This document shows positions 2,024 to 51,568 of a stretch of DNA of 64,000 nucleotides, in pieces. Under the pieces are notes generated by a model. It was not told the DNA's origin, did not search any database, and worked only from the letters and a program-made list of their open reading frames with translations. Each line of letters begins with the position of its first letter. Position 1 is the first letter of the stretch. Source of the stretch: Bacteroidota bacterium (lineage in GTDB: Bacteria; Bacteroidota; Bacteroidia; UKL13-3); assembly GCA_947477885.1 (NCBI GenBank), contig CANJUD010000003.1, forward strand, positions 215,774 through 279,773, in the 5' to 3' direction. The position numbers and the translations under genes were made by a program.

Positions 2024-2980
2024 TTACTTCAACTCCAAAAGCCCCTGCCCAAGGATATATCCTTCACAATACAATTCAAATTTATATTTACCTTTCTTGA
2101 AATCACCGGCACGTTTGTAATAGATTGAAATTATTTCACTGTTATTGGTGAAATCGATTGATTGTTTGGTAGTATATATACTTTCTTGCCCGGCATATTT
2201 AAAGGTGCCTGAGCCAGCTTGGTCATCTTTGATGGCTACACCATCAGGTCCAAATATTTTAACATATACATCTTTGCGGTTGCGGTCGGCCACTGCATTG
2301 CGGGCAAATCCGAATGAAATTTTTAGCTGTTCGGCTTTTGATGCCTTGGTAGTTTCTTGTTCTTTCCCACCACTCCTTATTCTAATTGCTAAGGCTGATA
2401 TGTTAACAGCCTCTAATATTTTTGCATTTTCTAAATCGCTTATTGCTTTACGTTTCTCGCCATCTAATTTATCCTTATCAGTTTCTAAAGTTTTAACGGA
2501 TGCTTTTAGTTCTGTATTTTCTTTTTTAACTTCATTCAATTCAACCAGTTTTTCGTCGAGTTCTTTCTTAGTCTTTTCGTAATAATACTTAAACTTATCA
2601 TACATCTCCATAGCACGTTCATAATCTTTCTTGCTCAAGTTTTTCGAATTCAATAAGCCTTGAATTTCGTTGGCCATATTATATAGCTCTGAGTTCTTTT
2701 TATCAATAACCCCATTTAATGAATCATTGATTCCACGGTAAGTTTCTAATTCTGCTTTAGCATTTGAAAGTAGTTTTTCCAAATCTGCACGTTCTTTTTT
2801 CACATCCATCAAATTGCTTTGCTCGGTTTCCAAAGCTTTGTCAGTATGAAGATACATATATAACAAATAGCCGTTCATCCCCAATAGAAACAGGATGATT
2901 AAGATATATACCAATCTATTAGACTCCTTTTTACGTTCGGGTCTAAAGTTGGCTGGACTTGGTTGTTGGTTATTTTCCAT
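2024..2980 (-). CDS. hypothetical single-pass membrane protein with long coiled-coil region
   Basis: N-terminal hydrophobic segment LVYILIILFLLGMNGYLLYMYL, then K/E-rich heptad-like region (~180 aa), C-terminal globular domain. Confidence 0.55.
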   Translation of the reverse strand: MENNQQPSPANFRPERKKESNRLVYILIILFLLGMNGYLLYMYLHTDKALETEQSNLMDVKKERADLEKLLSNAKAELETYRGINDSLNGVIDKKNSELYNMANEIQGLLNSKNLSKKDYERAMEMYDKFKYYYEKTKKELDEKLVELNEVKKENTELKASVKTLETDKDKLDGEKRKAISDLENAKILEAVNISALAIRIRSGGKEQETTKASKAEQLKISFGFARNAVADRNRKDVYVKIFGPDGVAIKDDQAGSGTFKYAGQESIYTTKQSIDFTNNSEIISIYYKRAGDFKKGKYKFELYCEGYILGQGLLELK

Positions 2981-3102
2981 AATACGTGTTATATAATACT
3001 TAGATATGCAAAATTAAACGATTTGTTCATATTAAAAACAAAAGCTATTGTTATTACGTGGACATCCTAGTCTGTTGTGTCTGAAAAAATGCTCATTGTG
3101 GG

Positions 3103-3248
3103 AATTACGAATTTTCAATTACGAATTACGAATAGTGAGCATCAAGTGGTTGGTCATGGTTCGACTACGCTCACAACCACAAACACAGGCAGTCGCATAA
3201 CCATCTAGCATCAGCCAATTCGTAATTGAAAATTCGTAATTCGTAATT
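3103..3248. repeat. MITE-like palindromic element: ~31-bp terminal inverted repeats built from AATTACGAA units around a ~80-bp core containing GGTTCGACTACGCTCAC
   Basis: Left arm aattacgaattttcaattacgaattacgaat (3103-3133), right arm aattcgtaattgaaaattcgtaattcgtaatt (3217-3248); core motif tggttcgac(t/a)(c/a)cgctcac recurs at 15455 and 30876; partial copy of arm at 12203-12245. Confidence 0.6.
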
Positions 3249-3250
3249 GA

Positions 3251-4732
3251 TTAGTCCATTGCTTTCAACTCGCTCACCAATTTGGTAAGGGCTGACTTAG
3301 CATCGCCGAATAGCATGGAGTTTTTTGGATTATAGAACAGTTCGTTTTCAATACCTGCATAACCCGCATTCATACTACGTTTGTTCACTATAATATTCTT
3401 GGCATTCTCTACATCGAGAATAGGCATACCAAATATGGGAGAAGCGGGATCATTATGAGCAGCAGGATTTACCACATCATTTGCTCCTACAACCAGTACA
3501 ACATCTGTGTTTGAAAATTCAGGATTGATTTCTTCCATCTCAACCAACTTGTCATACGACACATTTGATTCGGCCAATAGTACATTCATATGACCCGGCA
3601 TACGACCAGCAACTGGGTGTATTGCGTATTTAACTTCCACACCGCGTTCTTCTAATATAGTCTCCAATTCATGTATTACATGTTGTGCTTGAGCTACTGC
3701 CAATCCATATCCAGGAACTATAATAACTTTCTTTGAATAATTCATTAAAACAGCAGCATCTGTTATAGAAATTTCTTTGATATTCCCTGTAAGTTCACGA
3801 CCTGCAGCAGCACCCTTACTGCCAGCACCAAATGCTCCAAATATAACATTGCTTAGTGGGCGGTTCATTGCTTTACACATAACCAAAGTTAATAATGTTC
3901 CAGCAGAACCAACTAATATTCCACCGGTTAACATAGCTTTGTTATTATACATAAATCCACCGCACGCTGCGGCTAGTCCAGTAAATGAGTTTAGTAAAGA
4001 TATTACAACGGGCATATCTGCACCACCGATTGGTAGTACGAACATGACACCATATAATAATGCAGCTGCAAATAATAAATACACATGCATGTTACCTTCT
4101 ACATTTCCGTTCACAATTAAGAATGCATATACAAACAAACCAAGCATTAATATATTATTGGTAATATTATATTGTGGCAAACGGATAGGTTTGTTTAAAG
4201 TGCCATTTAATTTAGCCCAAGCTATAATAGAACCTGCAAAAGAAACAGAACCAATGACAAGACCTGCCATTATCATTGCAAGTTTTGCAGTATGACTCAT
4301 GCCACCTTGGTGTGCCATATTTTTTAACATTTCAACTAGGCCAGATAAATCCATTCCTCCTTCTGGTGTAACAGGCATAACTTGATGCCCCATGTGTTGA
4401 AATTCAATCAATGAAATTAATGCCGCACAAGCACCACCCATACCATTAAATATAGAAACGAGTTCGGGCATTTTTGTCATTTGTACTTTTTTGGCAGTCA
4501 TCCAACCCGCAATGGTTCCAAGACCTATAGCAGATAGAATTAAAGTATATATTATTGGTTGAACTTTTTCATCGTGGATGATGATAGTTCCGAGTATGGC
4601 CAAGGTCATTCCGAAGCATGCAATAAGATTCCCTTTTCTAGCAGTTGCTGGATGGGATAACATTTTAAGTCCTATTACGAAAGTAACAGATGCAACTAAG
4701 TAAATGATGTCGAGTAAATATTGTGTGTTCAT
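3251..4732 (-). CDS. pntB: NAD(P) transhydrogenase subunit beta
   Basis: 493 aa polytopic N-terminal membrane domain plus C-terminal NADP(H)-binding dIII domain (GYGLAVAQAQH...VVGANDVVNPAA...); typical PntB N-terminus MNTQYLLDIIYLVASV. Confidence 0.9.
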   Translation of the reverse strand: MNTQYLLDIIYLVASVTFVIGLKMLSHPATARKGNLIACFGMTLAILGTIIIHDEKVQPIIYTLILSAIGLGTIAGWMTAKKVQMTKMPELVSIFNGMGGACAALISLIEFQHMGHQVMPVTPEGGMDLSGLVEMLKNMAHQGGMSHTAKLAMIMAGLVIGSVSFAGSIIAWAKLNGTLNKPIRLPQYNITNNILMLGLFVYAFLIVNGNVEGNMHVYLLFAAALLYGVMFVLPIGGADMPVVISLLNSFTGLAAACGGFMYNNKAMLTGGILVGSAGTLLTLVMCKAMNRPLSNVIFGAFGAGSKGAAAGRELTGNIKEISITDAAVLMNYSKKVIIVPGYGLAVAQAQHVIHELETILEERGVEVKYAIHPVAGRMPGHMNVLLAESNVSYDKLVEMEEINPEFSNTDVVLVVGANDVVNPAAHNDPASPIFGMPILDVENAKNIIVNKRSMNAGYAGIENELFYNPKNSMLFGDAKSALTKLVSELKAMD

Positions 4733-39758: not shown

Positions 39759-40370
39759 ATGAAGATACTTTGCGTTGGTCGAAATTATTCTGAGCATATA
39801 AAAGAGCTGCAAAATGAAGTGCCCGAAAATCCGGTTATATTCATTAAGCCCGACAATGCTGTGCTAAGGCCAGGCTATGATTTTTACTATCCTGATTTTT
39901 CAAAAGATATACATTATGAGTTGGAGTTGATTGTAAAAATAAATAATACGGGTAAACATATATTACCGCAGTTTGCACACAAGTATTATGATGAAATTGC
40001 ATTGGGAATTGATTTCACAGCACGTGACTTACAAAACGATTTGAAGAAGAAAGGCTTACCTTGGGAGCTTGCCAAAGGCTTTGACATGAGTGCTGCTATT
40101 GGCGATTTTGTAAACAAAAGTAAGTTTGAAGATTTGCAAAAAATAGAATTCACCTTATATAAAAATGGCGAGAAAAAACAATTGGGCAATACTGCAGATA
40201 TGATATATAAAATAGATGAACTCATTGCGTTCATGTCACAATATTTCATGTTCAAAAAAGGGGATATTGTATTTACGGGAACGCCAGCAGGGGTGGGGCC
40301 TGTGCAGATTGGCGACAAACTAGAAGGGTATATATTCGACCAGAAAAATTTGGAAGTATTGATTAAATGA
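39759..40370 (+). CDS. fumarylacetoacetate hydrolase (FAH) family protein
   Basis: 203 aa; N-terminal KILCVGRNYSEHIKEL, C-terminal GDIVFTGTPAGVGPV. Confidence 0.75.
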   Translation: MKILCVGRNYSEHIKELQNEVPENPVIFIKPDNAVLRPGYDFYYPDFSKDIHYELELIVKINNTGKHILPQFAHKYYDEIALGIDFTARDLQNDLKKKGLPWELAKGFDMSAAIGDFVNKSKFEDLQKIEFTLYKNGEKKQLGNTADMIYKIDELIAFMSQYFMFKKGDIVFTGTPAGVGPVQIGDKLEGYIFDQKNLEVLIK

Positions 40371-42031
40371 AAAAAAACATATTTTATATAGGTATAGTTT
40401 TTTTTCTGCTAAGTAATCATATCGTTTTTGCTCAAAATTCATATCCGCAATATTATTTTCGTTCACCCATCGATTTACCCATATATCTTTCGGGAGGCTT
40501 TTGCACTTTGCGAAATGACCATTTCCATGCGGGCATAGATATTACAACCTATGATATAGAAAATATGCCAGTGATGGCTGCAGCCGATGGTTGGGTTTCA
40601 CGTATTAAAATATCTCCTTTTGGATACGGCAAAGCGTTATATATTGATCATCCCAATGGTTATACAACGGTATATGGACATTTAAATTCTTATACTGATG
40701 CTATAGGGAAATATGTAAAAGATATTCAATATGCTAATCAAAATTTCGAGATGGATATATTTCCCAAGAAAGGTGAACTTGTTGTGGTAAAAGGACAATT
40801 AGTTGCATTGAGCGGAAATACTGGAGGATCATCGGGTCCGCATATTCATTTTGAAATTAGAGATACAAAAACAGAAGAAATTATTAATCCAGTTTTGTTT
40901 GGGATTGATGTGAATGATACTATCGCTCCTGAAATAAAACAAGTGGCGATTAATAGAATATATAAAAGAGATTTCAATGCTAATAAAACGCTTGCAGTAA
41001 TCAATTATAATGATAAAAACTCTGACACCGTATTTATTCCCGAAGGCTCAGTAGGTATTGATGCAGTAGTAAATGATTATACTACTTTTAAAGTAATTCC
41101 TTTCAATCCTTATGAGATTAATTTATATATTAATAACGAGAAATATTATACTTGCAAATTTGAAAAATTTTCGTTTGATAAATCCAAGTATGTAAATGCC
41201 CATCTCAATTTTGCCAATTGGTGGAACTATGGAATTAAGTATCAAAGATTATATAAATTAAGTTCGAATCAATTATATTTTTACCAAGCCAAAAATGACG
41301 GTGTGTTTGATGTAGAGGTAAATAAAATGTATCATGTAAAAATTGAAGCAATAGATTTGGCGGGCTTTTCAAAAGAATTTGAATTTAATATATTTGGTAT
41401 TGCTGATACTGTAAAATATTCTATTATTACCATGGACTCAGTTAAAGCAAAGACCTATTGCGAACTTACTTTTTTAGAAAACAACCTAAGTATTCCCGAT
41501 GATATAGAAGCCAGTGAATTGGGGAATGGGAAGGTGAAAGTAAAATACAAACATTCTGATTTGCCAATCACATTTATTAAGCCCTGTAATTTGGCAATTA
41601 ACTATAATGGCAAAACCTTGCACAGTAAATCTTCATTGTATTATATTGATTATAACAAAAATATTATATATGCTGGGGGCTTTTTGCATAAAGATGGTAG
41701 GGTGTCAGCAAGTATTTCAAAACCTGGTATTTATTTTATTGGCGAAGATTTACAAAATCCTATTATAAAACCCCTTAATATCAATAAGAAAAGTCATATA
41801 AAAGGGAAGCATTTAAGTTTTAAAATTATCGATAAACTTAGCGGTATTGATAAATACAATTTATATATAAATAATGAATGGGTATTGGCAGAGTATGATG
41901 CCAAAAGTGATATGCTTACTTGCTTTTTTGATGCCAGTACACCAAATGGTAAAGCAACTGTAATTTTAAAAGTGGCGGATAAAGTAGGGAATGAAAATAT
42001 ATATACTAAAAAAGTATATATTAAGTATTGA
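40367..42031 (+). CDS. M23 family metallopeptidase with long C-terminal beta-rich extension
   Basis: HFHAGIDI … GHL … SGPHIHFEIRD motifs; signal peptide; 554 aa. Confidence 0.8.
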   Translation: MKKNIFYIGIVFFLLSNHIVFAQNSYPQYYFRSPIDLPIYLSGGFCTLRNDHFHAGIDITTYDIENMPVMAAADGWVSRIKISPFGYGKALYIDHPNGYTTVYGHLNSYTDAIGKYVKDIQYANQNFEMDIFPKKGELVVVKGQLVALSGNTGGSSGPHIHFEIRDTKTEEIINPVLFGIDVNDTIAPEIKQVAINRIYKRDFNANKTLAVINYNDKNSDTVFIPEGSVGIDAVVNDYTTFKVIPFNPYEINLYINNEKYYTCKFEKFSFDKSKYVNAHLNFANWWNYGIKYQRLYKLSSNQLYFYQAKNDGVFDVEVNKMYHVKIEAIDLAGFSKEFEFNIFGIADTVKYSIITMDSVKAKTYCELTFLENNLSIPDDIEASELGNGKVKVKYKHSDLPITFIKPCNLAINYNGKTLHSKSSLYYIDYNKNIIYAGGFLHKDGRVSASISKPGIYFIGEDLQNPIIKPLNINKKSHIKGKHLSFKIIDKLSGIDKYNLYINNEWVLAEYDAKSDMLTCFFDASTPNGKATVILKVADKVGNENIYTKKVYIKY

Positions 42032-42416
42032 TTTCTTCCAATAAAGTTTTAAGCCTACCAGTGTCTAAAGGTTTGTCAAACACTCCTTTTACTATGGAGT
42101 ATTTGGCTGCTTTCTCAAAATCTTTTTGGTCGGCTGTACTTGATAGTATGATAATAGAAATAGGTTTGCTCAGCACCGATCCAAAAGATTGTATATAACT
42201 ATCTAAGAAATCGAAACCGCTCATGGTTGGCATGTGTATATCTAATAAAATTACATCAGGAAGGTGTTGGTCTTCAGTTTTTATAGTAAGCAAATGAGAT
42301 AATGCGTCTTTAGCTTCCAAAAATGTAAGTACACTGGTGGATAAGCCTGCATTGTCAAGCAACCTAGAGGTTACATAAAGTTCAATCTCGCTATCGTCTA
42401 TTAATAAAAACTTCAT
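42021..42416 (-). CDS. response regulator, stand-alone receiver (CheY-like)
   Basis: LLIDDSEIE…ILLDIHMPTMSGFDFL…; 131 aa; 4-nt overlap with upstream hybrid kinase. Confidence 0.8.
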   Translation of the reverse strand: MKFLLIDDSEIELYVTSRLLDNAGLSTSVLTFLEAKDALSHLLTIKTEDQHLPDVILLDIHMPTMSGFDFLDSYIQSFGSVLSKPISIIILSSTADQKDFEKAAKYSIVKGVFDKPLDTGRLKTLLEEINT

Positions 42417-43522
42417 GCTTCAATGTTTTGTTTCGTGGGTATTTCTAAAATAAATTTTGTACCAATATTGGGTTTCGATTCTATTCTAATTTGTGCTCCT
42501 ATTTTATTTAATGCTTCTTTTACTATATATAATCCAATACCTGAACCTGAGTTCTGCCTAGTAGCCCTATAAAACATTTCAAAAATTCTTTTCTGATCCT
42601 CTTCGTCTATGCCTATCCCGTTGTCTTCAAAAATTAATGTTGCTTTTTTTGAGTCTGTGGTATCGCATGTAAAAATAATATGCTTATTGGTAATTTCACT
42701 CCTTTGAAATTTAATGGCATTAGTAATCAGGTTATTAAAAATTATTTTAATTCTAAATAAATCACCCATCCAGGGTTCGTTTTGGTTGGTATTAATTACA
42801 AAATTGATTGCTTCTGCACCAGGGTAGTATTGGAATTGCTCGAAAATATCCCTAGCGATTTCTTTAAAATCAATAGGTTCAATCACGGTTTCTTGTTTGT
42901 TGTTTTTAAAATAGGAAATCAAGTTCAAATTGAATGCGTCCAATTGGTTCACACTCCTCTCAATTAAACTAAAATAATGCTTCACCCTGTCATCAATACC
43001 TTCCATTTCAGCGACTTTAATGATGCCAATAATGGAACGAAGCGGAGCACGCATATCATGAGAAGCACTGTATACAAAGCGGTTTAATTCTTCATGTGCT
43101 TTTTCCAATTCGTCTTGTTTAAACTCAAGCAACGCATTATTCAAATAATGTTCGTGTGCTATTCTAATAGTTGACAAAACCTCGTCTTCGTTGAGTGGTT
43201 TAAATAAATAGCTAAATATTTTTGCTTTGTTGATTCCTTTAACAGCTGCTGCAAAATCGAAAAATGCAGTGAGAAGAATTTTTACAGGACGGGGATATTC
43301 TTCCCTGATATCATCTAAAAAATCAATACCATCATCTTCACCCAATTTAAGATCGGCCACCACAATCTGGTATTCTTCTTCCTTTAGCAAAGCATAAGCC
43401 TCACTAACCGATAAACATCCAATTACCTCATATTCTTTACGAAGTATAGCTCTTAAACCTGTAATGTTGTGTGGTTCATCGTCAAGGTATAAAATTTTTG
43501 GTTTGTTTTCAGGTGGCTTCAT
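42413..43522 (-). CDS. hybrid REC-HisKA-HATPase protein (receiver fused N-terminally to histidine kinase)
   Basis: REC (KILYLDDEPHN…VVADLKLGEDDGIDFL), H-box SHDMRAPL, HATPase N/G boxes (LITNAIKF…DNGIGID…GSGIGLYIV). Confidence 0.8.
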   Translation of the reverse strand: MKPPENKPKILYLDDEPHNITGLRAILRKEYEVIGCLSVSEAYALLKEEEYQIVVADLKLGEDDGIDFLDDIREEYPRPVKILLTAFFDFAAAVKGINKAKIFSYLFKPLNEDEVLSTIRIAHEHYLNNALLEFKQDELEKAHEELNRFVYSASHDMRAPLRSIIGIIKVAEMEGIDDRVKHYFSLIERSVNQLDAFNLNLISYFKNNKQETVIEPIDFKEIARDIFEQFQYYPGAEAINFVINTNQNEPWMGDLFRIKIIFNNLITNAIKFQRSEITNKHIIFTCDTTDSKKATLIFEDNGIGIDEEDQKRIFEMFYRATRQNSGSGIGLYIVKEALNKIGAQIRIESKPNIGTKFILEIPTKQNIEA

Positions 43523-45624
43523 TCTTGTTTCAAAGGTATGGAAATTTTAAATAAAGTTCCAAAATTATTATTCGACAGGACATTAATTTGTCCTTTGTGC
43601 ATTTCTATAATGCTATATACTATTGATAGTCCTAGCCCTGTGCCGTCACCAACAGGTTTTGTGGTGAAGAATGGTTCAAATACTTTACCCAAATAACCCT
43701 CATCTATACCTGGGCCATTATCACTAAATTCAATATATAGATTGTTCTCATCACTATAAGTTTTTATTTTTATTTCTTGATTTACAATACTTTCTTTAGC
43801 TTTAGTGAGTGCATAAATTGAATTATTAAGAATATTCATAAATACTTGATTCATTTTACCTACAAAACATTCCACTAAAGGCATTTCTCCATATTCTTTT
43901 ACTATGGTAATACTACCCATTTGAGTCTTCAATAACATTAAAGTAGAATCAATTCCTTCATGCACATCTGCTAGGCGCAGCGATTGTTCATCAACACGTG
44001 AAAATGATTTGAGCCCTTTTACAATTTCCGCGGTTCTTTCTGCTCCATTTTGTATAGCATCGAACAACTGCGGGATTTCTTCTTTCAAATAATTGAAATC
44101 ATATTTTTCTTTGATTTTAACTAGCTTTGCTACCATATCTGTATCTCCCAAATTTGAAAACAAGGTTTCCGACTCATGAACTATATTCATTAGTTCATGC
44201 ACATCACGTTTCAATGGTTTGATATTGGAACTCACAAAATTTATGGGATTATTGATTTCGTGTGCGATACCCGCCGTGAGCTGACCCAGCGACGACATTT
44301 TTTCGTTGTCAACCAGTTTTGTTTGGGCTAGTTTTAAGTCGCCCAAAGTTTTATTTAGTTCAGAAGTTCTTTCTTTAACCTGATGCTCCAACAGCACATT
44401 TTGTTCTGCCAAAATCTCTTCATTTAATTTGGATACTCTCACTGCTTCTGCCTGCGATATTTCTTTTTCAATTCTATATTGTCTTATTTTATCGCCCAGT
44501 GCAAATGATAGAAGTGTTACCTCTATGGCTGTACCTATTTGCAATGCATAATTGGTGAAATTATTATGCTCAAGTACACCCACATCTCTTAATATATATA
44601 CTACCAATGCTAAAATTAGGCTAGTCCAAGATATCAGAAAATAATTTGCTGAAGGAATTTTCTTTCTAACAGCAACAAGGCTGACAACAAATAAATAAAT
44701 AGGGCTTAGTCCCAATACATTCCTTGCGCAATTAAAGGCAGCTGCCCGAGAATAAAACAAAGTGATTGCCATGATAAGAACCAGCAATCCCAAAAGAACT
44801 TTACTAATCTTATGAAGTATGGGTATATTTTCTTTGACGTTCAAAAATTTATTGGCAAATATTATCCCAGTTATGTTTACAAGGGGGGTAAATAAAAGCA
44901 AAGCATATTGTGTAAGCCATAAATTATCGGGCCATAATACTACGTTGCCATAACCTTCGAGAGCAAGCTGTGTAATGATGAGCACAGCCATATATACTGA
45001 ATAATATAGGTATATTTTGTCTTTAACTGTAAAGTATATAAAAAAATTATAGAAAAGCATGATCATCAGCATTCCATAATAGATACCCAATAGCAAGTTT
45101 TTGGCAAATCGATCCTCAACAAATTTGTTGAGGCTATTAAGTTTAAGGTCAAGCTGTAAAGTGCTGATGCTGGTTATTTTTATATAATAATCTGATGTAT
45201 CATCTATTACTTCAAATACAGGAATATTACATTTAAATTGTCTTTTACTTAATGGAATTCTTTCACCGGAAAGCACGGAGTCAATAACGCCATTTTTAAC
45301 TTTATATAGTATAATATCATTTAATATAGGTTGGTCATATACCAACAAAAGCTTTTTATATTCTGAATAGTTTTTTAATTGAAACTTGAACCAAAAACTA
45401 TAATTGGTAAGTTGTAGGTTTGGAATATCAAATTGACTCGAAATTTTTTGGTCAAATGCGATCTTCATCACATCTTTTATTTGCATTGATTGGTTAGAAT
45501 CAATATAATAATCTACTTTTTTACTAATGTTTAATTCGGTTTCATTGTGTTCAAAAACTATTTGTGCAGATGCAGAGGTGCCAAAATACGTTATTGCTAA
45601 AATGATATATAATCTTAATGTCAT
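43519..45624 (-). CDS. 7TMR-DISM sensor histidine kinase
   Basis: Signal peptide, ~180-aa periplasmic 7TMR-DISM_extracell_2-like domain, 7 TM helices, H-box GIAHEINNPINFV, HATPase (NNSIYAL…DNGPGID…GTGLGLSIV); 701 aa. Confidence 0.8.
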   Translation of the reverse strand: MTLRLYIILAITYFGTSASAQIVFEHNETELNISKKVDYYIDSNQSMQIKDVMKIAFDQKISSQFDIPNLQLTNYSFWFKFQLKNYSEYKKLLLVYDQPILNDIILYKVKNGVIDSVLSGERIPLSKRQFKCNIPVFEVIDDTSDYYIKITSISTLQLDLKLNSLNKFVEDRFAKNLLLGIYYGMLMIMLFYNFFIYFTVKDKIYLYYSVYMAVLIITQLALEGYGNVVLWPDNLWLTQYALLLFTPLVNITGIIFANKFLNVKENIPILHKISKVLLGLLVLIMAITLFYSRAAAFNCARNVLGLSPIYLFVVSLVAVRKKIPSANYFLISWTSLILALVVYILRDVGVLEHNNFTNYALQIGTAIEVTLLSFALGDKIRQYRIEKEISQAEAVRVSKLNEEILAEQNVLLEHQVKERTSELNKTLGDLKLAQTKLVDNEKMSSLGQLTAGIAHEINNPINFVSSNIKPLKRDVHELMNIVHESETLFSNLGDTDMVAKLVKIKEKYDFNYLKEEIPQLFDAIQNGAERTAEIVKGLKSFSRVDEQSLRLADVHEGIDSTLMLLKTQMGSITIVKEYGEMPLVECFVGKMNQVFMNILNNSIYALTKAKESIVNQEIKIKTYSDENNLYIEFSDNGPGIDEGYLGKVFEPFFTTKPVGDGTGLGLSIVYSIIEMHKGQINVLSNNNFGTLFKISIPLKQE

Positions 45625-46319
45625 TTTCTTGGCACTACCTTAATACGGCAATTCAAAACAAGATCGCCTTTTGGGCCATTTGCATGATGGACTTGTTCTG
45701 GATTATTCCTTAATGATAATATTCCCTCACGGTACTTTGGGTCAGCATACTCCAGTTCGATAGGGTCTTTTATGATGGTTGCAGTAGCCAATAAATTTTC
45801 CTTTGGATAATAGAATGTACCATTATTGCCCAATGAACGTATGACCTCGAATCCAGCATTTCTAGCATTTTTTAATGATGGTGGTGAACACAAAGCAAAA
45901 AGTGATTTTAAGTTTAACATGGGGCAAATGGCCACAGAAACTTGACCTAAGAAAATACTTCCAATGCCATGTCCTGCAACTTCTTTCGAATTCCATAAAC
46001 CACAAAATTCTGCGGTTTCATGGTGCTTAAATTGTCTAATAACATCATATATTTTTGGGTCTTTTTCCATTACCGCAGCTTCAATAGGCAAACTTTGGCT
46101 AGGTGTAAAAATTTGTATGCGTCCCCCACCCAATGCCTTATCCTCATTCTCATCTTCAAACAATATAATGTAATTGTCTGGATTGTATCGCCAATCTTTT
46201 TGGGTGGAGGTTACTCTAGTAACACCATACACTTTAAGCACCTCGGCATACCCTGCTATAAACTTATCAGTAGACATGGCATCGTCAATAGGTCTGAAAA
46301 CTTTTACATTTGCTATCAT
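45621..46319 (-). CDS. GNAT-fold acyltransferase-like protein (232 aa), first gene of the kinase operon
   Basis: GNAT motif A-like AEFCGLWNSKEVAGHGIGSIFLG and motif B-like KNARNAGFEVI; unusual ~100-aa N- and ~80-aa C-extensions; 4-nt overlap with downstream 7TMR-DISM kinase. Confidence 0.45.
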   Translation of the reverse strand: MIANVKVFRPIDDAMSTDKFIAGYAEVLKVYGVTRVTSTQKDWRYNPDNYIILFEDENEDKALGGGRIQIFTPSQSLPIEAAVMEKDPKIYDVIRQFKHHETAEFCGLWNSKEVAGHGIGSIFLGQVSVAICPMLNLKSLFALCSPPSLKNARNAGFEVIRSLGNNGTFYYPKENLLATATIIKDPIELEYADPKYREGILSLRNNPEQVHHANGPKGDLVLNCRIKVVPRK

Positions 46320-46837
46320 TATAATATTTTAACTGATAATCTTTAACGCCTCATTGCAATCTTTTCATTAGACGTTGTTTTATTTTTTATTGGGTTTAAA
46401 TACGCTATTAATAAATTGAGTTTCGTATGATTCGGATTTTATAAGTGTCCATTTTTTCAGAATGTATTTTTCCTGTTTATAGGGTTTTTATGGGTTTGAA
46501 TCTGGTTTTCCATAAATGTTGAAGCAGCAATCGGTTGGTCAGCATAACTCTCTTTTTTGAGCCACAGCCTAGCATCTTCTGCAGTTTTGCCTGCTTCTAT
46601 TCATGCATTATTATGGTGCTTGTTACATACAATGATACCTATAAAAATTGAATAGATTACAGCTGTTAAATCATTGTTGAAAAGAAGCCAGTTTTTAAAA
46701 TTACTTCAATTGTCATTCATAAAAGCATACCTATGTTATTTGAAGTTTTCTAACGTGAAAACGCATTTATTTTAAACTTTTGGAAATTTTATTCTTGCAC
46801 ATTTTTAAAATTCTAATAAATTGCAGGCGAATTTAGG

Positions 46838-47380
46838 ATGATGGACTCAGAAATAAATACCCCCAAAATAAAGATATTATATGTTGATGATGAGCCAGGA
46901 AATCTTATTGGCTTCAAATCGCATTTTCGAAAAGACTATGATGTCCATACTTATGATTCTGCTTTAAAAGCATTAGAAGAATTGCATTTGCATGACTTTG
47001 CCATGGTGATTACAGACCAACGAATGCCTGAAATGACCGGTGTAGAGTTTCTTGAAAAACTGGTTGCAATAAATCCCGAACCTGTTAGGGTGCTGCTTAC
47101 AGGATATACTGATTTTACTGCACTAGTTGATGCTATTAATAAAGTGAATATATTTCAATACCACCAAAAACCTTGGGACGAGAACCAGATGCTTACTACC
47201 ATTAAACAAGGTACGGAGGTGTTTTTTTTAAGACGTGAACGTGTGAGGTTATTGGAAGAAGTAAAATTAAAGAACGAACAATTGGAAATAAAAAATGAGG
47301 AATTGGCCGACATGAATAATGAGTTGGAAAAGGTAAACGGGCAATTGGAGTTCCTATTGAGACAGCAATTGCTTTCTTAA
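46838..47380 (+). CDS. response regulator receiver with C-terminal coiled coil
   Basis: REC domain closely paralogous to the REC of the hybrid kinase (KILYVDDEPGNLIGF…VITDQRMPEMTGVEFL); C-terminal heptad-rich EEVKLKNEQLEIKNEELADMNNELEKVNGQLEFL. Confidence 0.75.
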   Translation: MMDSEINTPKIKILYVDDEPGNLIGFKSHFRKDYDVHTYDSALKALEELHLHDFAMVITDQRMPEMTGVEFLEKLVAINPEPVRVLLTGYTDFTALVDAINKVNIFQYHQKPWDENQMLTTIKQGTEVFFLRRERVRLLEEVKLKNEQLEIKNEELADMNNELEKVNGQLEFLLRQQLLS

Positions 47381-47401: not shown

Positions 47402-47848
47402 ATGCAATTACAGGTAGGGCAAAAAGCACCCACATTTAAAACTACCAGCGAAAAAGGTGAAACTGTATCCCTTTCCGATTACAAAGGTAAAAAATTAGTA
47501 TTATACTTCTATCCTAAAGACGATACCCCAACATGCACCATTGAGGCTTGCGACTTGCGTGACAATTACGAAGGTTTTAAAAGCAAAGGCTACGAAATAC
47601 TGGGAATTAGCATGGATACTGAAAAAAAACATGCCAAGTTTATCAAAAAATTCTCACTCCCCTTTTCGCTTCTGAGCGATGTGGAACACAAAATAATTTC
47701 TGACTATGGCGTATGGGGTGAGAAAATGCTCTTTGGTCGCAAATACTTGGGGATTATCCGCACCACTTTTGTGATAAATGAAAGCGGTATCATTGAACAA
47801 ATCATTGAAAAAGTTGATGCCAAAAACCACTCGGCACAAATTATATAG
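47402..47848 (+). CDS. bcp: thioredoxin-dependent thiol peroxidase (Bcp/PrxQ)
   Basis: Peroxiredoxin motif FYPKDDTPTCTIEACDLRD; 148 aa. Confidence 0.85.
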   Translation: MQLQVGQKAPTFKTTSEKGETVSLSDYKGKKLVLYFYPKDDTPTCTIEACDLRDNYEGFKSKGYEILGISMDTEKKHAKFIKKFSLPFSLLSDVEHKIISDYGVWGEKMLFGRKYLGIIRTTFVINESGIIEQIIEKVDAKNHSAQII

Positions 47849-47940
47849 CAATATTGCTGTAAATTAGTCCCAAACTATACACCCAAGATTCATTATTATA
47901 ATAAGATAAAAATATGCTGAAACGAATATATACCTTTTAG

Positions 47941-48483
47941 CCTCAATATGAATGTCTTAAATATTTAAAAAGAAAATTCGGCAATAAAATTAAATTGGTG
48001 CCAATGGGATTAGGACCCAAAGTAGAAGAAAAAACGATGTTCATATCAGATGCTCACACTATTTCTACATTTTCTGAAGATTTTATTTCTACTACACAGA
48101 ATAGTGGCAGATTCAGACAATATAATTGGAATGTGAAACGCCAAATTAAAATGACCACCCTCGATAATTTGATTAGTAAATTTGGCTTGCCTCAATTTAT
48201 TAAAATTGATGTGGAGGGATTTGAAATAGAAGTATTGGAAGGACTAACCAAAGCAATAAATACTATATCATACGAATACGCAGTGCCTGAGCAAACCGAC
48301 AATGCAGTGCTATGTTTACAAAGAATCATGGAAATTTCTGATAATAAAGTTTCTTGCAATTACTCCATTGGCGAAAGCATGAAATGGGCTTTAACAGAGT
48401 GGCGAACCCCTGAGCAAATGATTGCTGAAATCAAATCGCAAAAGTTTACCGATAAGGGCTTTGGATATATATATAAAGTATAA
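47941..48483 (+). pseudogene. FkbM-family methyltransferase, N-terminally truncated
   Basis: C-terminal FkbM signature …FIKIDVEGFEIEVLEGL… present; frame opens right after a stop at 47938-47940; no SAM-binding N-terminal half; only a TTG start at 47995. Confidence 0.5.
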
Positions 48484-48632: not shown

Positions 48633-50543
48633 TTATTTTACTACCACTATTTTATTAGTAGTGGTGGTATTGCCGCATGTGGTATTACTATAATATATAC
48701 CTTCTGGTAATTGTGCAGTATTTATGATAATATAATTTTGTCCTGCAGCCAAGTTTTGTTTGCCGGTTGTATAAACCATTTTGCCTGTAGCATCATATAA
48801 GTTACATATTACATCAGCAGTTTTTATAAGTGATATAGATATAGTAGTCATTTCATGTGCAGGGTTGGGGAATACAGATGCTGTAAATGTTTTTTGTTCA
48901 ACATTGTATATAGCAGTAGGGTCAAGCACTTTGCTGTAGTCAGTATTTACGGGATCCCAATTACACCAACCTTTTGTCCAGTCGTCATTAGTGGTTTGTG
49001 TGCCAGAAAATGCACCTATATAATTTACTTTATCGAAGAAGGGGTTAGATAATTTAGGGCTGCTTGATGGCACAAAATCTGGAGCATTATAGTTTGCAAA
49101 CCAATTAGAAGTATCGGTATTAATTGCCATGCTTGCTTTAAAAGGATATACTTTTCCATTGCCAAATGGATCAGCGGATGCAAAATGCGACTTGTCGGTC
49201 ATATATGCTGGGAGGGCTTTACTATTATAGCAAATCACTGAACTGCTGGTGGGAACAAAGTTAGGATTAACCAAGTTGAATGGGCTTTGTAGCTTTAAAC
49301 CATTTTGTGCATTTGCATATATCTTATTGCGATGTTTGCTTTCTTTTAACCAAGAGAAAGGCCCGTCATAAACTCCAAAAGGAGTTCCTGTAACTGTATC
49401 AGCACTTGCAGTAGTAGGGGTTAAATTTCGTGCACCATTTATTACGTACATTATTTCTTTTTGAGCAGGACTTCCTCCTGATGGAATACCTGCAATTGCC
49501 ACACCTGATATCTCCAATAAAGAGTCTTGTATATTAGCTACAGTTGAACCAAACGAAGGCGAAGACTCATCAATCAATATACCTGCAGGGTAACCTATTA
49601 GCAAACTGTTTAATATACTCATGCTGCTTCCTCTGCGTATGTGTGCAGCAGCAACAAATTGTGGATCATAAGCTGTAGAACTTGGGCTCACAAGTGGTCC
49701 AACAGCAGTTACGTTAGCAAATATGGAACGGTTGAGACCACTGGTATCGCCGGCCAAACCGGTTTTGGTGCCAGCTAAATAGCTATCACTCTCGAAACAC
49801 TTACTGCCCGATTGGTCAGCAGCATAAGGATCGCGTAAAGACACCAAAAATTGATTTTTTCCTTTGTAACCAGCATCATTATCGAAATCGTCATCCCATC
49901 CTCTATACGAAACAAGGTATTTAGCATTTACATTTCCGCCAAACCATTCGTAACTATCATCGCCACTATATGATACTTGAATATGATGAATTGTTGTAGC
50001 TTCACCCACACCGCAAAGTGTAAGTCCGTTTACTTCGTTGTTGGGAGAGAAAGCAATACCGCCAAATTCAATACGTACATAAGTTAATATACCTGAATTG
50101 TCCTGTGCATTAGTACCGCCATATAAACTACGAGGCCCGCCTTCTACCTGTGCTTGACCTGCGGTCCAGTTGGTAGGAGCACTGCCACATATAATAAGCC
50201 CGCCCCAGTCGCCATAACTGCGATTGCCTGCTGCTTGGTTACTTGTAAAAACAATTGGGTTTTTTAGCGTGCCGGCACACATAATTTTTGCACCACGCTC
50301 AATAATCAAAGTGCCTTTGGTGTTTTTGTCACCTTTAATAATAGTTCCTGGTTCAATTGTGAGTGTTGTTCCAGAGGTAACATATACATACCCTTTAATT
50401 AAGTATTGTTTATTGTTGGTCCAAGTAACGTCTGAACTAATACTGTCCTGCTGGGTAACAACAGTAACTTGTGCATTGGTAACAATTGCTGATAATCCGA
50501 TGCACAGGAATATCGCAAGCATGATTAATTTGTGTTTTTTCAT
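48633..50543 (-). CDS. secreted hypothetical protein (636 aa) with T9SS C-terminal sorting domain
   Basis: Signal peptide MKKHKLIMLAIFLCIGLSAIVTNAQ; C-terminal Por_Secre_tail-like (FTASVFPNPAHEMTTISISL…GIYYSNT…KIVVVK). Confidence 0.7.
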   Translation of the reverse strand: MKKHKLIMLAIFLCIGLSAIVTNAQVTVVTQQDSISSDVTWTNNKQYLIKGYVYVTSGTTLTIEPGTIIKGDKNTKGTLIIERGAKIMCAGTLKNPIVFTSNQAAGNRSYGDWGGLIICGSAPTNWTAGQAQVEGGPRSLYGGTNAQDNSGILTYVRIEFGGIAFSPNNEVNGLTLCGVGEATTIHHIQVSYSGDDSYEWFGGNVNAKYLVSYRGWDDDFDNDAGYKGKNQFLVSLRDPYAADQSGSKCFESDSYLAGTKTGLAGDTSGLNRSIFANVTAVGPLVSPSSTAYDPQFVAAAHIRRGSSMSILNSLLIGYPAGILIDESSPSFGSTVANIQDSLLEISGVAIAGIPSGGSPAQKEIMYVINGARNLTPTTASADTVTGTPFGVYDGPFSWLKESKHRNKIYANAQNGLKLQSPFNLVNPNFVPTSSSVICYNSKALPAYMTDKSHFASADPFGNGKVYPFKASMAINTDTSNWFANYNAPDFVPSSSPKLSNPFFDKVNYIGAFSGTQTTNDDWTKGWCNWDPVNTDYSKVLDPTAIYNVEQKTFTASVFPNPAHEMTTISISLIKTADVICNLYDATGKMVYTTGKQNLAAGQNYIIINTAQLPEGIYYSNTTCGNTTTTNKIVVVK

Positions 50544-50884: not shown

Positions 50885-51568
50885 ATGAACAATAATATAA
50901 CCCACAAAATATTGGTGGTAGATGATGAACCAGATATTGTTGAATTTATTTCATACAATCTCATCAAAGAAGGATATAGGGTAGAGACAGCGACCAATGG
51001 CAAAGAAGCTATTGAAAAAACAAAAACATTTATTCCCGACTTAGTTTTATTAGATCTGATGATGCCTATACAAGATGGTATAGAAACATGTATTCAATTG
51101 CGTGAACTGCCTGAGATGAAAGGGAATTTTATTGTATTTCTCACTGCACGTAGCGAAGAATATTCTGAGATTAGTGGTTTCAATGCAGGTGCTGATGACT
51201 ATGTGGCAAAACCCATTAAGCCCCGTTTATTATTAAGCAGACTAAAAGCAATCCTACGTCGCAAAACCACTTTAAAAGAAACGGAAGCTTTGGATGTGGC
51301 AGATATTATAATAGATAGGGAACAGTTTATGGTCTTCCGAGGTTCTGAGAAAATACAACTTGCACGCAAAGAATTTGAACTATTATATTTACTGGCATCT
51401 AAACCTGGTAAAGTATTTAACCGCGAAACCATATTAGAAAAGATATGGGGTGATGATGTATTGGTAATCGACCGCACCATTGATGTGCATATCCGCAAAA
51501 TCCGCGAGAAATTAGGCGATGATTATATCGGTACAGTTAAAGGCGTCGGATATAAGTTTGATAAATAA
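50885..51568 (+). CDS. OmpR/PhoB-family response regulator (REC + winged-helix), no adjacent kinase
   Basis: REC (KILVVDDEPDI…LLDLMMP) and C-terminal trans_reg_C (…IDRTIDVHIRKIREKL…GVGYKF). Confidence 0.85.
   Translation: MNNNITHKILVVDDEPDIVEFISYNLIKEGYRVETATNGKEAIEKTKTFIPDLVLLDLMMPIQDGIETCIQLRELPEMKGNFIVFLTARSEEYSEISGFNAGADDYVAKPIKPRLLLSRLKAILRRKTTLKETEALDVADIIIDREQFMVFRGSEKIQLARKEFELLYLLASKPGKVFNRETILEKIWGDDVLVIDRTIDVHIRKIREKLGDDYIGTVKGVGYKFDK

Follow-up and report, generated by a model that had tools for sequence, protein, structure and literature searches.

A probable decayed N-acyl amino acid and oxazolone biosynthesis cassette linked to a phosphorelay in Bacteroidota

Why should a gene for an acyltransferase-like enzyme overlap a run of genes for histidine kinases and receivers? 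This question is raised by a locus within the 64,000-nucleotide stretch of Bacteroidota DNA analyzed here (the window), for which an earlier sequence-only reading had proposed an autoinducer-like circuit, with an enzyme that could make an acylated small molecule co-translated with the sensor that might detect it. All five open reading frames (ORFs) of that reading, four on the minus strand and one on the plus strand, lie exactly where it had put them (Table 1), and the four minus-strand ORFs do overlap by 4 nt, with an ATGA start/stop at all three junctions and no terminator-like sites inside the operon. We consider it reasonably probable that the locus represents, in decayed form, a cassette found across the Bacteroidota, in which an N-acyl amino acid/N-acyl oxazolone biosynthetic pair is joined to a multi-kinase phosphorelay.

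Table 1. Features of the operon, the spacer and the divergent gene (window positions).
Feature	Position	Strand	Remarks
X232 (232 aa)	45621..46319	-	GNAT-superfamily acyltransferase-like enzyme
7TMR-DISM sensor histidine kinase (701 aa)	43519..45624	-	PF07696 5.7e-21, PF07695 9.8e-49, PF00512, PF02518
REC-HisKA-HATPase kinase (369 aa)	42413..43522	-	Pfam REC 2.5e-16, HisKA, HATPase 6.1e-24
Stand-alone receiver REC131 (131 aa)	42021..42416	-	Pfam REC 1.2e-13
REC + coiled-coil protein (180 aa)	46838..47380	+ (divergent)	Pfam REC only, 4.3e-18
Decayed 3' remnant (almost certain pseudogene) of the Rv1355c family, TrzS/OxzB-type ThiF-nitroreductase oxazolone synthetase	46332..46687 (~360 bp)	-	tblastn
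Deletion scar, ~100 bp without counterpart	46684..46783	.	replaces ~1.9 kb (L001 5720-7617)
Retained divergent control region	46784..46837	.	common to the operon and the divergent REC gene

Pfam upheld the domains that had been assigned to the operon's three signalling proteins. The 701-aa kinase is built from a signal peptide, a DISMED2 periplasmic domain, seven transmembrane helices, a coiled coil, and HisKA and HATPase domains (Pfam order 7TMR-DISMED2, 7TMR-DISM_7TM, HisKA, HATPase_c), and its H-box reads HEINNP, with H455 as the histidine. Receiver aspartates are found in the REC proteins of the cassette, and the 369-aa protein, which keeps both D57 of its receiver and H155 of its H-box, reads as a soluble kinase of the second tier, under the control of its N-terminal receiver. 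The best NCBIfam match of the divergent 180-aa protein is the N-terminal REC and linker of a NosR-family response regulator (5e-45), and its REC is, as had been claimed, clearly paralogous to that of the REC-kinase (36.5% identity over 156 aa, E 2e-28, REC-kinase residues 7-148). This paralogy spans REC and linker, the 180-aa protein ending where the H-box would start; its family has a conserved C-terminal motif, QLEFLLRQ(Q/K)L(L/I)S, visible in three of the related loci compared here (L001, L011 and L025). REC131 is only a distant relative of these two RECs. The cassette also lacks an output domain, as the sequence-only reading had noted: by Pfam it encodes no DNA-binding or enzymatic effector, and neither an exporter nor a transcriptional output is encoded in it. 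Directly 3' of the divergent REC gene, a peroxiredoxin gene (Bcp) is found in the window's clade.

The 520-bp region between the operon and the divergent gene had been described as gene-free, and this description fails. The spacer holds a frameshifted, stop-riddled relic of the 3'-terminal ~120 codons of a gene of the Rv1355c family, which, judged from its sequence, is almost certainly a trzS/oxzB-type pseudogene. With the 759-aa protein of L001 as tblastn query, residues 638-749 matched window positions 46687-46346 (42% identity, 1e-17) and residues 708-759 matched 46478-46332 in a different frame; the relic has stops in all three frames, and its DNA is 71% identical to the 3' end of the L001 gene (69-71% over the L001 and L002 comparisons). 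The flanking blastn blocks pair window 47499-46784 with L001 5013-5719 and window 46683-45649 with L001 7618-8662, and the segment deleted between them corresponds to residues ~6-637 of the ThiF-nitroreductase protein. In a second, sister lineage (L082), where the gene is likewise reduced to a relic, the spacer is of identical length (518 bp). The retained control region extends ~17 nt into the ancestral ThiF-nitroreductase reading frame, and the 54 spacer nt adjoining the start codon of the REC/coiled-coil gene match L001 and L002 at 90-93% identity; in L001, 35 nt separate the two divergent start codons. With such a relic in the spacer, the four-gene operon reads as a decayed five-gene operon, and because the pseudogene had been overlooked, so had the identity of the pathway and its degraded state in this organism. 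Despite the loss of the ThiF-nitroreductase gene, X232 and all four signalling genes are intact and under purifying selection: since the partner was lost X232 has evolved with a dN/dS of 0.081 (at dS 0.34), the spacer meanwhile being 78% identical with 10 gaps.

The related loci show what the ancestral partner would have been, an Rv1355c-family ThiF-nitroreductase enzyme encoded beside X232. In L001, L011 and L016 the gene is intact, upstream or downstream of X232, and scores 620-777 bits on the NCBI curated model NF005901 ("Rv1355c family protein", cut-off 476 bits). Across 80 loci the X232 neighbor is ThiF plus nitroreductase (NTR) in 38, ThiF only in 31 and an FAD-linked oxidase in 8, with 3 cut off by contig ends; a ThiF-X232 fusion protein (P0234, in L086) stands alone, with no two-component genes nearby. 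Rv1355c is TrzS and Rv1356c is TrzA, both reconstituted in vitro (Kleetz et al., JBC 2025, PMC12856293), as were OxzA and OxzB (de Rond, Asay & Moore; bioRxiv 10.1101/2020.06.11.147165). TrzS and OxzB perform an ATP-dependent cyclisation of N-acyl amino acids, followed by desaturation to oxazolones (PMC12856293; bioRxiv 10.1101/2020.06.11.147165); N-acyl-Trp intermediates build up in the culture supernatant and the oxazolones are retained in cells (PMC12856293). The authors of the trzAS study remark on a resemblance to acyl-homoserine lactones (AHLs) and on the adjacency to c-di-GMP genes (PMC12856293), which we re-observed in L091 and L092.

Like TrzA-TrzS, the N-acyl tryptazolone pathway of Mycobacterium tuberculosis and other mycolata (PMC12856293), the Bacteroidota loci combine an Rv1355c-family gene with an adjoining acyltransferase of ~230-250 aa that has no Pfam model, and have signalling genes nearby, c-di-GMP enzymes in mycobacteria and a phosphorelay in Bacteroidota. 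They differ in that the acyltransferases can barely be aligned, in that the Bacteroidota gene order is variable and the partner can be ThiF by itself, an FAD oxidase or, as in the window, a pseudogene, and in being tied to histidine kinases instead of GGDEF/EAL proteins. The tyrazolone/phenazolone pathway OxzA-OxzB of Pseudoalteromonas rubra and other Proteobacteria likewise pairs an N-acyltransferase with a ThiF-nitroreductase di-domain enzyme, and a signalling role has been proposed for it (bioRxiv 10.1101/2020.06.11.147165), but there the two genes form an operon of their own, described from alpha-, beta- and gammaproteobacteria. That paper reports no kinase linkage or Bacteroidota members, with 0 occurrences of "Bacteroidetes" or "histidine kinase".

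X232 itself matched no Pfam or NCBIfam model, but its confident AlphaFold model has the GNAT fold that the sequence-only reading had called. The closest folds are the N-acyl amino acid synthase FeeM and LuxI-type AHL synthases (PDB 2g0b, 1ro5, 3p2h, 6wn0, 5w8a), with ~175 residues aligned, among them the N-terminal extension of these enzymes; the closest matches are not protein acetyltransferases. X232 does not belong to these families at the sequence level. The suggested LuxI likeness holds for the fold only, and by profile the LuxI comparison is not significant. With TrzA, hhalign gave marginal homology (E 0.002 over 164 co-linear columns, probability 13.6%), and hmmsearch against a Rhodococcus TrzA homolog gave E 0.15. 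Under the X232-TrzA alignment, independently predicted secondary structures are in register (Q3 0.66 vs 0.23-0.32 in shifted registers) and 7 residues invariant in both families coincide, whereas shifted controls average 0.37 and never exceed 3. The X232 family also has invariants that TrzA lacks (C106, N110, S111 and the NGTFYYPKE motif), so its substrate or chemistry may differ, and by inspection the post-beta4 loop EVAGHGIGS resembles the GNAT pyrophosphate-binding motif, suggesting CoA rather than ACP as donor. We predict that X232 is the Bacteroidota counterpart of TrzA/OxzA/TyzA, and consider it likely to be an N-acyl amino acid synthase. With an ancestral neighbor of the TrzS/OxzB family and an enzyme resembling TrzA, the idea of an acylated small molecule is much better grounded than when it was proposed. 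Among its best 150 representatives X232 is specific to Bacteroidota. The domain also occurs in fusions with TIR, LRR and Mrr-type nuclease domains, which hints at roles beyond metabolite synthesis.

The gene combination is co-conserved in Cytophagales, Chitinophagales, Sphingobacteriales and one Flavobacteriales MAG. The DISM kinase gene follows X232 in 66/71 loci, the REC-kinase is present in 69/70 and the divergent REC/coiled-coil copy in 66/66; the stand-alone receiver occurs in 38/69 and is absent from Cyclobacteriaceae. Even distant members from Flavobacteriales and Sphingobacterium (E~1e-38 to 1e-82) retain the cassette, and the DISM kinase is likewise present in the divergent loci L095 and L096. 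The order of the genes varies between loci, and the 4-nt overlaps are specific to the window's clade, the gap between the X232 and kinase genes being 50-250 nt elsewhere. None of the ~80 cassettes encodes a DNA-binding response regulator. We found no account in the literature of X232 in combination with these three partners, the 7TMR-DISM kinase, the REC-kinase and the divergent REC/coiled-coil protein.

In this organism, where the partner gene is dead, the pathway would end at the N-acyl amino acid. The X232 product or a derivative would be functionally coupled to the co-transcribed 7TMR-DISM kinase, which would autophosphorylate on H455 and serve as phosphodonor for the receivers of three proteins, the REC-kinase, the lone REC and the divergent REC/coiled-coil protein; the phosphorylated REC-kinase would then work as a second, gated kinase. 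With no DNA-binding or enzymatic effector in the cassette, the relay would act through protein-protein contacts. A similar logic is found in LuxM/LuxN, AinS/AinR, CqsA/CqsS and LqsA/LqsS, in which the gene for a signal synthase neighbors, or shares a transcript with, that for a polytopic membrane histidine kinase feeding a multi-step relay, and this is the logic of the circuit first proposed here. Their synthase and receptor families are, however, unrelated to those of the cassette, where a ligand-receptor pairing is only inferred and no Hpt protein or terminal DNA-binding regulator can be seen. The Pseudomonas aeruginosa kinases RetS and LadS share the DISMED2 periplasmic domain, 7TM region and kinase core, and belong to multi-kinase networks whose kinases modulate each other. 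They are hybrid kinases with C-terminal receivers that act on GacS, whereas the 701-aa kinase lacks a receiver, and the REC-kinase that comes after it is a separate protein; we know of no link between RetS or LadS and a lipid-synthesis gene.

Does the kinase detect the lipid, or govern it? An autoinducer-like loop, in which the 7TMR-DISM kinase would sense a self-made lipid and not just control or accompany its synthesis, is a tentative proposal, although the conserved pairing and the enzyme evidence make it more plausible than before; the reverse wiring, with the kinases controlling lipid production, is equally compatible with the data. Less likely, in our estimate, is a relay lying upstream of the chemistry. 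The kinase would then respond to an outside stimulus, such as envelope stress, antibiotics, or a surface or carbohydrate signal, and the acyltransferase, together with any oxazolone synthetase, would simply be a co-regulated output whose lipid protects the cell or acts on membranes and does not feed back on the kinase. DISMED2 (PF07696) is classed as a carbohydrate-binding-like extracellular module, a function drawn from RetS/LadS, and the position of Bcp after the divergent REC gene in the window's clade fits such a role, as do the induction of oxazolone production by sub-lethal antibiotics in Proteobacteria, the tie of the M. tuberculosis tyz locus to oxidative-stress resistance and the mostly cell-associated state of oxazolones (PMC12856293). 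Against it, the ~80 cassettes without a DNA-binding response regulator make a simple local transcriptional loop not evident, and the enzyme genes lie nearest the promoter of the transcription unit that also carries the kinases, not in a separate target operon. The tailoring enzyme moreover varies (ThiF-NTR, ThiF alone, FAD oxidase or none) while acyltransferase and relay are constant, which looks more like signal diversification than a fixed protective lipid.

Two other readings concern X232 itself. It could be no metabolite synthase at all but a regulatory protein acyltransferase or ligand-sensing module acting on the kinase or receivers, for example by REC lysine acylation, and so tie the relay to the acyl-CoA pool. 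Its strict co-occurrence with the relay, the overlapping, stoichiometric translation that it shares with the kinase in this clade, its TIR, LRR and Mrr-nuclease fusions, as expected of a sensor or regulatory domain, and its continued purifying selection after loss of the ThiF-NTR partner are all consistent with this. We nevertheless judge it improbable, given closest folds that are small-molecule N-acyl synthases and not protein acetyltransferases, a near-universal neighbor acting on N-acyl amino acids, a ThiF-X232 fusion away from two-component genes, and a sole X232-kinase "fusion" (P0261) that looks degenerate or mis-assembled. Least credible of all is a true LuxI-type AHL synthase, by which the cassette would be a Bacteroidota AHL quorum-sensing system. 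X232 has no PF00765 match, hhalign against a LasI/TofI/BjaI/RpaI profile gives a probability of 1.5%, and the LuxI beta4 motif E-x-S-R reads E-F-C-G; the partner enzyme, furthermore, requires the free carboxylate of an N-acyl amino acid, not a lactone. The fold-neighbor list does not discriminate here, since TrzA, a demonstrated N-acyl-Trp synthase, shares it.

If X232 is an N-acyl amino acid synthase, as we favor, its products would belong to the precursors of the recently discovered "oxazolone" lipids, and the linkage to kinases offers a testable lead on the purpose of these lipids.

All five open reading frames proposed in the sequence-only reading were reproduced exactly, including the overlaps between the minus-strand genes, which have an ATGA start/stop at all three internal junctions, and Pfam matched the domains called for the 701-, 369-, 131- and 180-aa proteins (table below). 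These 4-nt overlaps are confined to the clade of the window. The 7TMR-DISM kinase HK701 comprises DISMED2, 7TM and a HisKA/HATPase core, with all four Pfam models above their gathering thresholds, an HEINNP H-box at H455 and an N-terminal segment that is signal-peptide-like. H155 is in place in the REC-kinase REC-HK369, and the three receivers of the cassette have their aspartates (D57, D59 and D60). The receiver of the divergent REC/coiled-coil protein REC-cc is indeed paralogous to that of REC-HK369 (36.5% identity over 156 residues including the linker, E = 2e-28); the lone receiver REC131 is only distantly related. The coiled coil of REC-cc ends where the H-box of the paralogous kinase begins, and its tail, QLEFLLRQ(Q/K)L(L/I)S, is conserved.

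Coordinates of the operon, the divergent receiver gene and neighbouring features in the window
Feature	Position	Strand	Product
M23-peptidase gene	40367-42031	+	
Lone REC (REC131)	42021-42416	-	131 aa; Pfam REC alone
REC-kinase (REC-HK369)	42413-43522	-	369 aa; Pfam REC, HisKA, HATPase_c
7TMR-DISM kinase (HK701)	43519-45624	-	701 aa; Pfam 7TMR-DISMED2, 7TMR-DISM_7TM, HisKA, HATPase_c
X232, acyltransferase-like	45621-46319	-	232 aa (ORF map)
Remnant of ThiF-nitroreductase gene	46687-46332		aligns to residues 638-759 of the L001 partner, in two frames
Divergent REC/coiled-coil (REC-cc)	46838-47380	+	180 aa; Pfam REC alone
Bcp-type peroxiredoxin gene	47402-47848	+	
FkbM-type methyltransferase, 5'-truncated	47995-48483		162 aa; TTG start
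Beta-helix protein	48633-50543		636 aa; T9SS C-terminal sorting domain
OmpR-type response regulator	50885-51568		REC, Trans_reg_C

A promoter and terminator scan found no terminator-like sites within the operon, and sigma-70-type promoter matches occurred at chance level (31 versus 27.7 +/- 5.7). The Bacteroidetes -7 motif TAnnTTTG was absent from the spacer between X232 and REC-cc, and an Rfam search of this spacer gave no match. At the other end, the 3' ends of the lone REC gene and the convergent M23-peptidase gene overlap by 11 nt (42021-42031), leaving no space for an intergenic terminator. The Bcp-type gene lies in the same orientation as REC-cc, 21 nt downstream of it, an order seen in the close relatives L001, L002, L081 and L082 only and not in the Dyadobacter or Cyclobacterium loci. 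Beyond the cassette, the beta-helix protein and the OmpR-type regulator are conserved in L081 and L082, two close relatives. There is a second deletion nearby (window 47849-48483 versus L001 2766-4496), where the truncated FkbM-type methyltransferase has a 256-aa ortholog in L001 and the DUF268/Methyltransf_23 gene that lies between the FkbM-type and Bcp genes in L001 is missing.

The first gene of the operon, X232, had been called GNAT-like from sequence motifs; the fold was borne out by modelling, and profile searches did not confirm it. X232 matched no family in Pfam or NCBIfam at E<=0.1 and nothing among the PADLOC models or PDB sequences, as a single sequence or as a profile, and sub-threshold Acetyltransf_1 matches were seen in some distant relatives only. 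An AlphaFold2 model built from a 64-sequence alignment (pLDDT 91.9, pTM 0.90) has the mixed alpha/beta GNAT fold, in the order beta1-alpha1-alpha2-beta2-beta3-beta4-alpha3-beta5-alpha4-beta6, and Foldseek placed LuxI-type AHL synthases and FeeM at the top ranks. Its fold is closest to FeeM and the AHL synthases (FeeM 16.8, LasI 16.5, TofI 15.7, PA0115 15.3), and a model of the TrzA family of N-acyl amino acid synthases gave 16.1, 15.6, 14.5 and 13.8, respectively, in the same comparison. The fold of TyzA, also an N-acyl amino acid synthase, has been reported as closest to these same proteins (PMC10404671). Between beta4 (102-110) and alpha3 (120-130), X232 carries the stretch E113-V-A-G116-H-G118-I-G120-S, in which G116, G118 and G120 are invariant and which, on inspection of the pattern, resembles the GNAT pyrophosphate loop (Q/R-x-x-G-x-G/A). 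The family is a coherent set of ~230-aa "hypothetical proteins". A word-indexed search gave 458 matches, and when 1.84 billion representatives were searched exhaustively with a profile, 570 representatives at 50% identity were found (445 at E<=1e-10); the named members that were looked up are all from Bacteroidota.

The catalytic and SAM-binding residues of LuxI proteins are, in LasI numbering, R23, F27, W33, D44, D47, R70, E101, S103 and R104. X232 has possible equivalents for the beta3 Arg (R67) and beta4 Glu (E104) only, and the LuxI beta4 motif E-x-S-R is replaced by E-F-C-G. No Pfam match to PF00765 (LuxI) was obtained, and hhalign against a profile of LasI, TofI, BjaI and RpaI (four authentic sequences from the PDB, fetched with a LasI sequence as bait) returned a non-significant probability of 1.5%, so X232 was rejected as a LuxI protein by sequence. 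TrzA was likewise without a significant hhalign match to this profile.

The TrzA family used for comparison was taken from a Rhodococcus plasmid locus, where the gene order (EAL, TrzA, ThiF-fusion gene, GAF-GGDEF-EAL) is the published layout and thus confirms the identity of TrzA. When X232 was aligned to this family, hhalign gave E = 0.002 over 164 co-linear columns, yet a probability of only 13.6%, and hmmsearch gave E = 0.15. Independently predicted secondary structures agreed across the alignment (Q3 0.66, versus 0.23-0.32 for shifts of >=15 residues). At seven positions a residue invariant in one family falls on the same invariant residue of the other (G64/G86, G65/G87, R67/R89, E104/E129, G156/G181, Y171/Y193 and P172/P194), against 0.37 on average and at most 3 in shifted-register controls, which are lenient because hhalign optimises the true register. 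Other invariants, namely C106, N110, S111 and NGTFYYPKE, are specific to the X232 family and have no TrzA counterpart. X232 is thus very probably the enzyme that makes N-acyl amino acids in a pathway of the oxzAB/trzAS type, as a predicted rather than demonstrated member of that synthase family. Its relation to TrzA would be that of a distant homolog or of a protein from the same FeeM-like branch of GNAT enzymes.

Two further candidates, a Streptomyces "GNAT family protein" paired with ThiF at L090 and a 164-aa neighbour at L088, were rejected as X232 relatives, since neither matched the X232 profile. At L090 (3929-5727, on a plasmid of Streptomyces sp. NBC_01471) the gene of a ThiF-only protein, homologous to the N-terminal half of Rv1355c, overlaps by 4 nt that of this 211-aa GNAT protein, which is unrelated to X232 in sequence; this suggests that the GNAT acyltransferases recruited by ThiF-type cyclases differ from phylum to phylum. 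Within the X232 family there are fusions to TIR, leucine-rich repeats and an Mrr-type restriction-endonuclease domain as well as a tandem duplicate (P0149, P0147, P0232, P0133; L087), and P0147 has His in place of the otherwise invariant Cys106. TIR, LRR and Mrr-type architectures are typical of conflict and defence proteins, and given these fusions and the duplicate the role of X232 may not be purely biosynthetic. Reading X232 as a defence system on this basis was rejected and stays a caveat, as PADLOC recognises the TIR, Mrr and E1 parts and never X232.

We then looked for the gene combination elsewhere. With one genome scanned per species, 294 X232 relatives were found, and 80 loci were analysed, with X232 setting the orientation, tblastn used for scoring and loci having enough flank as the denominators for each component. 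The divergent REC/coiled-coil gene was present in 66/66 loci and the REC-kinase in 69/70; the 7TMR-DISM kinase was found in 66/71, the misses lying beyond the search range, and the lone REC in 38/69. The combination is therefore not specific to this strain, being kept across at least four Bacteroidota orders, and the cassette is retained even with very divergent X232 members, those of Sphingobacterium and of a Flavobacteriales MAG. The putative synthase and the kinase, which form one transcription unit in the window, stay linked in the 66 loci and in these divergent members. The Cyclobacteriaceae cassettes consistently carry, 1.5-5 kb upstream of the REC/coiled-coil gene, a PorX-like REC+PglZ response-regulator gene with genes for TsaE and alanine dehydrogenase after it (L040 2956-4509, with equivalent matches at ~2950-3310 in all Cyclobacteriaceae loci). 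An apparent X232-kinase fusion, P0261 (L094 4001-6694), joins X232 minus its first ~35 residues to a 7TMR-DISM kinase without signal peptide in an otherwise normal cassette; it was rejected as Rosetta-stone evidence because both of these segments are missing and it stems from one metagenomic contig, and the locus is probably degenerate or mis-assembled.

In most loci X232 has a partner gene directly adjacent. It encodes a ~760-aa protein that combines a ThiF/E1-like domain with an Acg-type nitroreductase domain, and in L001, L011 and L016 this protein scores 620-777 bits on the curated NCBI "Rv1355c family protein" model (NF005901, cut-off 476). A full ThiF-nitroreductase gene lies upstream or downstream of X232 in 38/80 loci, and the ThiF half only in 31/80 (Cyclobacteriaceae, Algoriphagus); the short Cyclobacteriaceae neighbour was considered as the nitroreductase half and rejected, as it is the ThiF half. 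A FAD_binding_4 oxidase takes the place of the ThiF-nitroreductase in 8/80 loci (Chitinophagaceae, Flavipsychrobacter), and in 3/80 the neighbour is lost to a contig end. A ThiF-like cyclase, with or without a nitroreductase-type oxidase, stands beside X232 in 71/80 loci, and in P0234 the two form a natural ThiF-X232 fusion, solitary in its genome and with no two-component genes nearby.

The window itself has lost this partner. The 518-bp spacer, which the sequence-only reading had taken to be gene-free, holds the remnant of a fifth gene of the ThiF-nitroreductase type: only residues ~638-759 of the L001 partner are left (42-50% identity, E 1e-17), frameshifted and with stop codons in all three frames, and tblastn found no intact trzS-type gene within the 64-kb window. 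About 1.9 kb of the two closest relatives (X232 80-89% identical) corresponds to ~100 unmatched bases here. Identity to the relatives is 90-93% in the 54 bp beside the divergent REC gene, a stretch that takes in the opening codons of the lost gene, and 69-71% in the remnant. This deletion is real and not an assembly artefact, as at least 24 contigs from independent samples encode exactly this X232 protein (e.g. GCA_947475885.1) and a second lineage, L082, with a 94% identical X232, has the same spacer. When the two deletion-bearing lineages are compared, dN/dS is 0.081 for X232 (at dS 0.34), 0.13 for the 7TMR-DISM kinase, 0.12 for the REC-kinase and 0.04 for the REC/coiled-coil gene, as against 78% identity with 10 gap openings in the spacer, indicating that X232 and the relay remained functional well after the partner was lost.

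The enzyme pair itself is of a known kind. N-acyl oxazolones were first found in 2020-2021, and their biosynthesis has since been solved in Proteobacteria and M. tuberculosis; there Rv1356c (TrzA) is an acyl-CoA:tryptophan N-acyltransferase encoded next to Rv1355c (TrzS), the partner, which converts N-acyl-L-tryptophan to N-acyl tryptazolone and requires ATP and O2 to do so (PMC12856293). The known producers of N-acyl tyrosines belong to three phyla, Bacteroidota not among them (PMC12479983). The physiological role of oxazolones has been called "a major unresolved question" (PMC12856293), and signalling is speculated on in the oxazolone papers. Members from Bacteroidota and a link to kinases are both absent from the key oxazolone papers, and our literature searches returned no publication on the X232 family or its 7TMR-DISM coupling, nor on the enzyme pair in Bacteroidota. 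The "unorthodox" kinase pathway RgzAB of Flavobacterium johnsoniae has a GAF-HK-REC-Hpt architecture, unlike and unrelated to the X232 cassette. In Mycobacterium haemophilum (L091) and Mycolicibacterium thermoresistibile (L092), trzA-trzS is flanked by EAL and GAF-GGDEF-EAL genes, so that the link between pathway and signalling recurs in a second phylum with another kind of signalling protein.

We propose that X232 would N-acylate an amino acid, with acyl-CoA as the likely donor in view of the putative pyrophosphate loop. In most Bacteroidota the neighbouring enzyme would convert the product to an oxazolone, whereas in the window it would stay an N-acyl amino acid; in both cases the phosphorelay would be functionally tied to the X232-derived lipid. 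The nature of this tie can be read in two ways. The kinase might perceive the self-made lipid as its putative receptor, which we consider possible, at somewhat less than an even chance. This reading is favoured by the constancy of acyltransferase and relay beside a variable tailoring enzyme, which they have outlasted in the window, and by the lack of a locally encoded DNA-binding regulator; it is also favoured by the build-up of N-acyl-Trp intermediates in culture supernatants while oxazolones remain in the cells (PMC12856293). Alternatively, the kinases would answer an external stress and the lipid would be a co-regulated output; antibiotics are reported to induce oxazolone production and the Mtb tyz locus is reportedly linked to oxidative stress, and we regard this reading as possible too, if slightly less probable than the first. 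The output of the relay must go through protein-protein contacts of its single-domain receivers. REC-cc may, speculatively, dock onto the kinase dimerisation helix, given where its coiled coil ends and its conserved tail.

Taken further, lipid perception by the kinase would make the cassette the first pathway dedicated to perceiving N-acyl amino acid/oxazolone lipids and an autoinducer-type communication system across Bacteroidota, with X232 as synthase and the 7TMR-DISM kinase as receptor, a proposal we hold only tentatively and judge less likely than not as a whole. Lineage-specific tailoring (ThiF-nitroreductase, ThiF alone, FAD oxidase or none) would then diversify the signal, the window lineage would be a natural "signal-switched" variant using the untailored N-acyl amino acid and, by extension, the oxazolones of mycobacteria and proteobacteria would act as signals too.

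The cassette would extend the oxazolone-type pathway to a fourth phylum and defines an unannotated acyltransferase family of ~570 representatives at 50% identity with no Pfam model. Its near-obligate operonic tie to a 7TMR-DISM multi-kinase relay provides a concrete candidate receptor or regulator and opens the function of oxazolones and N-acyl amino acids to direct testing. Cultivable carriers (Dyadobacter, Cyclobacterium, Algoriphagus and Sphingobacterium) would allow a direct test of the signalling hypothesis, and the window, with its tailoring enzyme lost and its acyltransferase and relay kept under selection, offers a ready comparison that could show whether acyl amino acid or oxazolone is what counts for the relay. 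The chemistry of cell-cell signalling in Bacteroidota is poorly understood, and a positive result would close a real gap.
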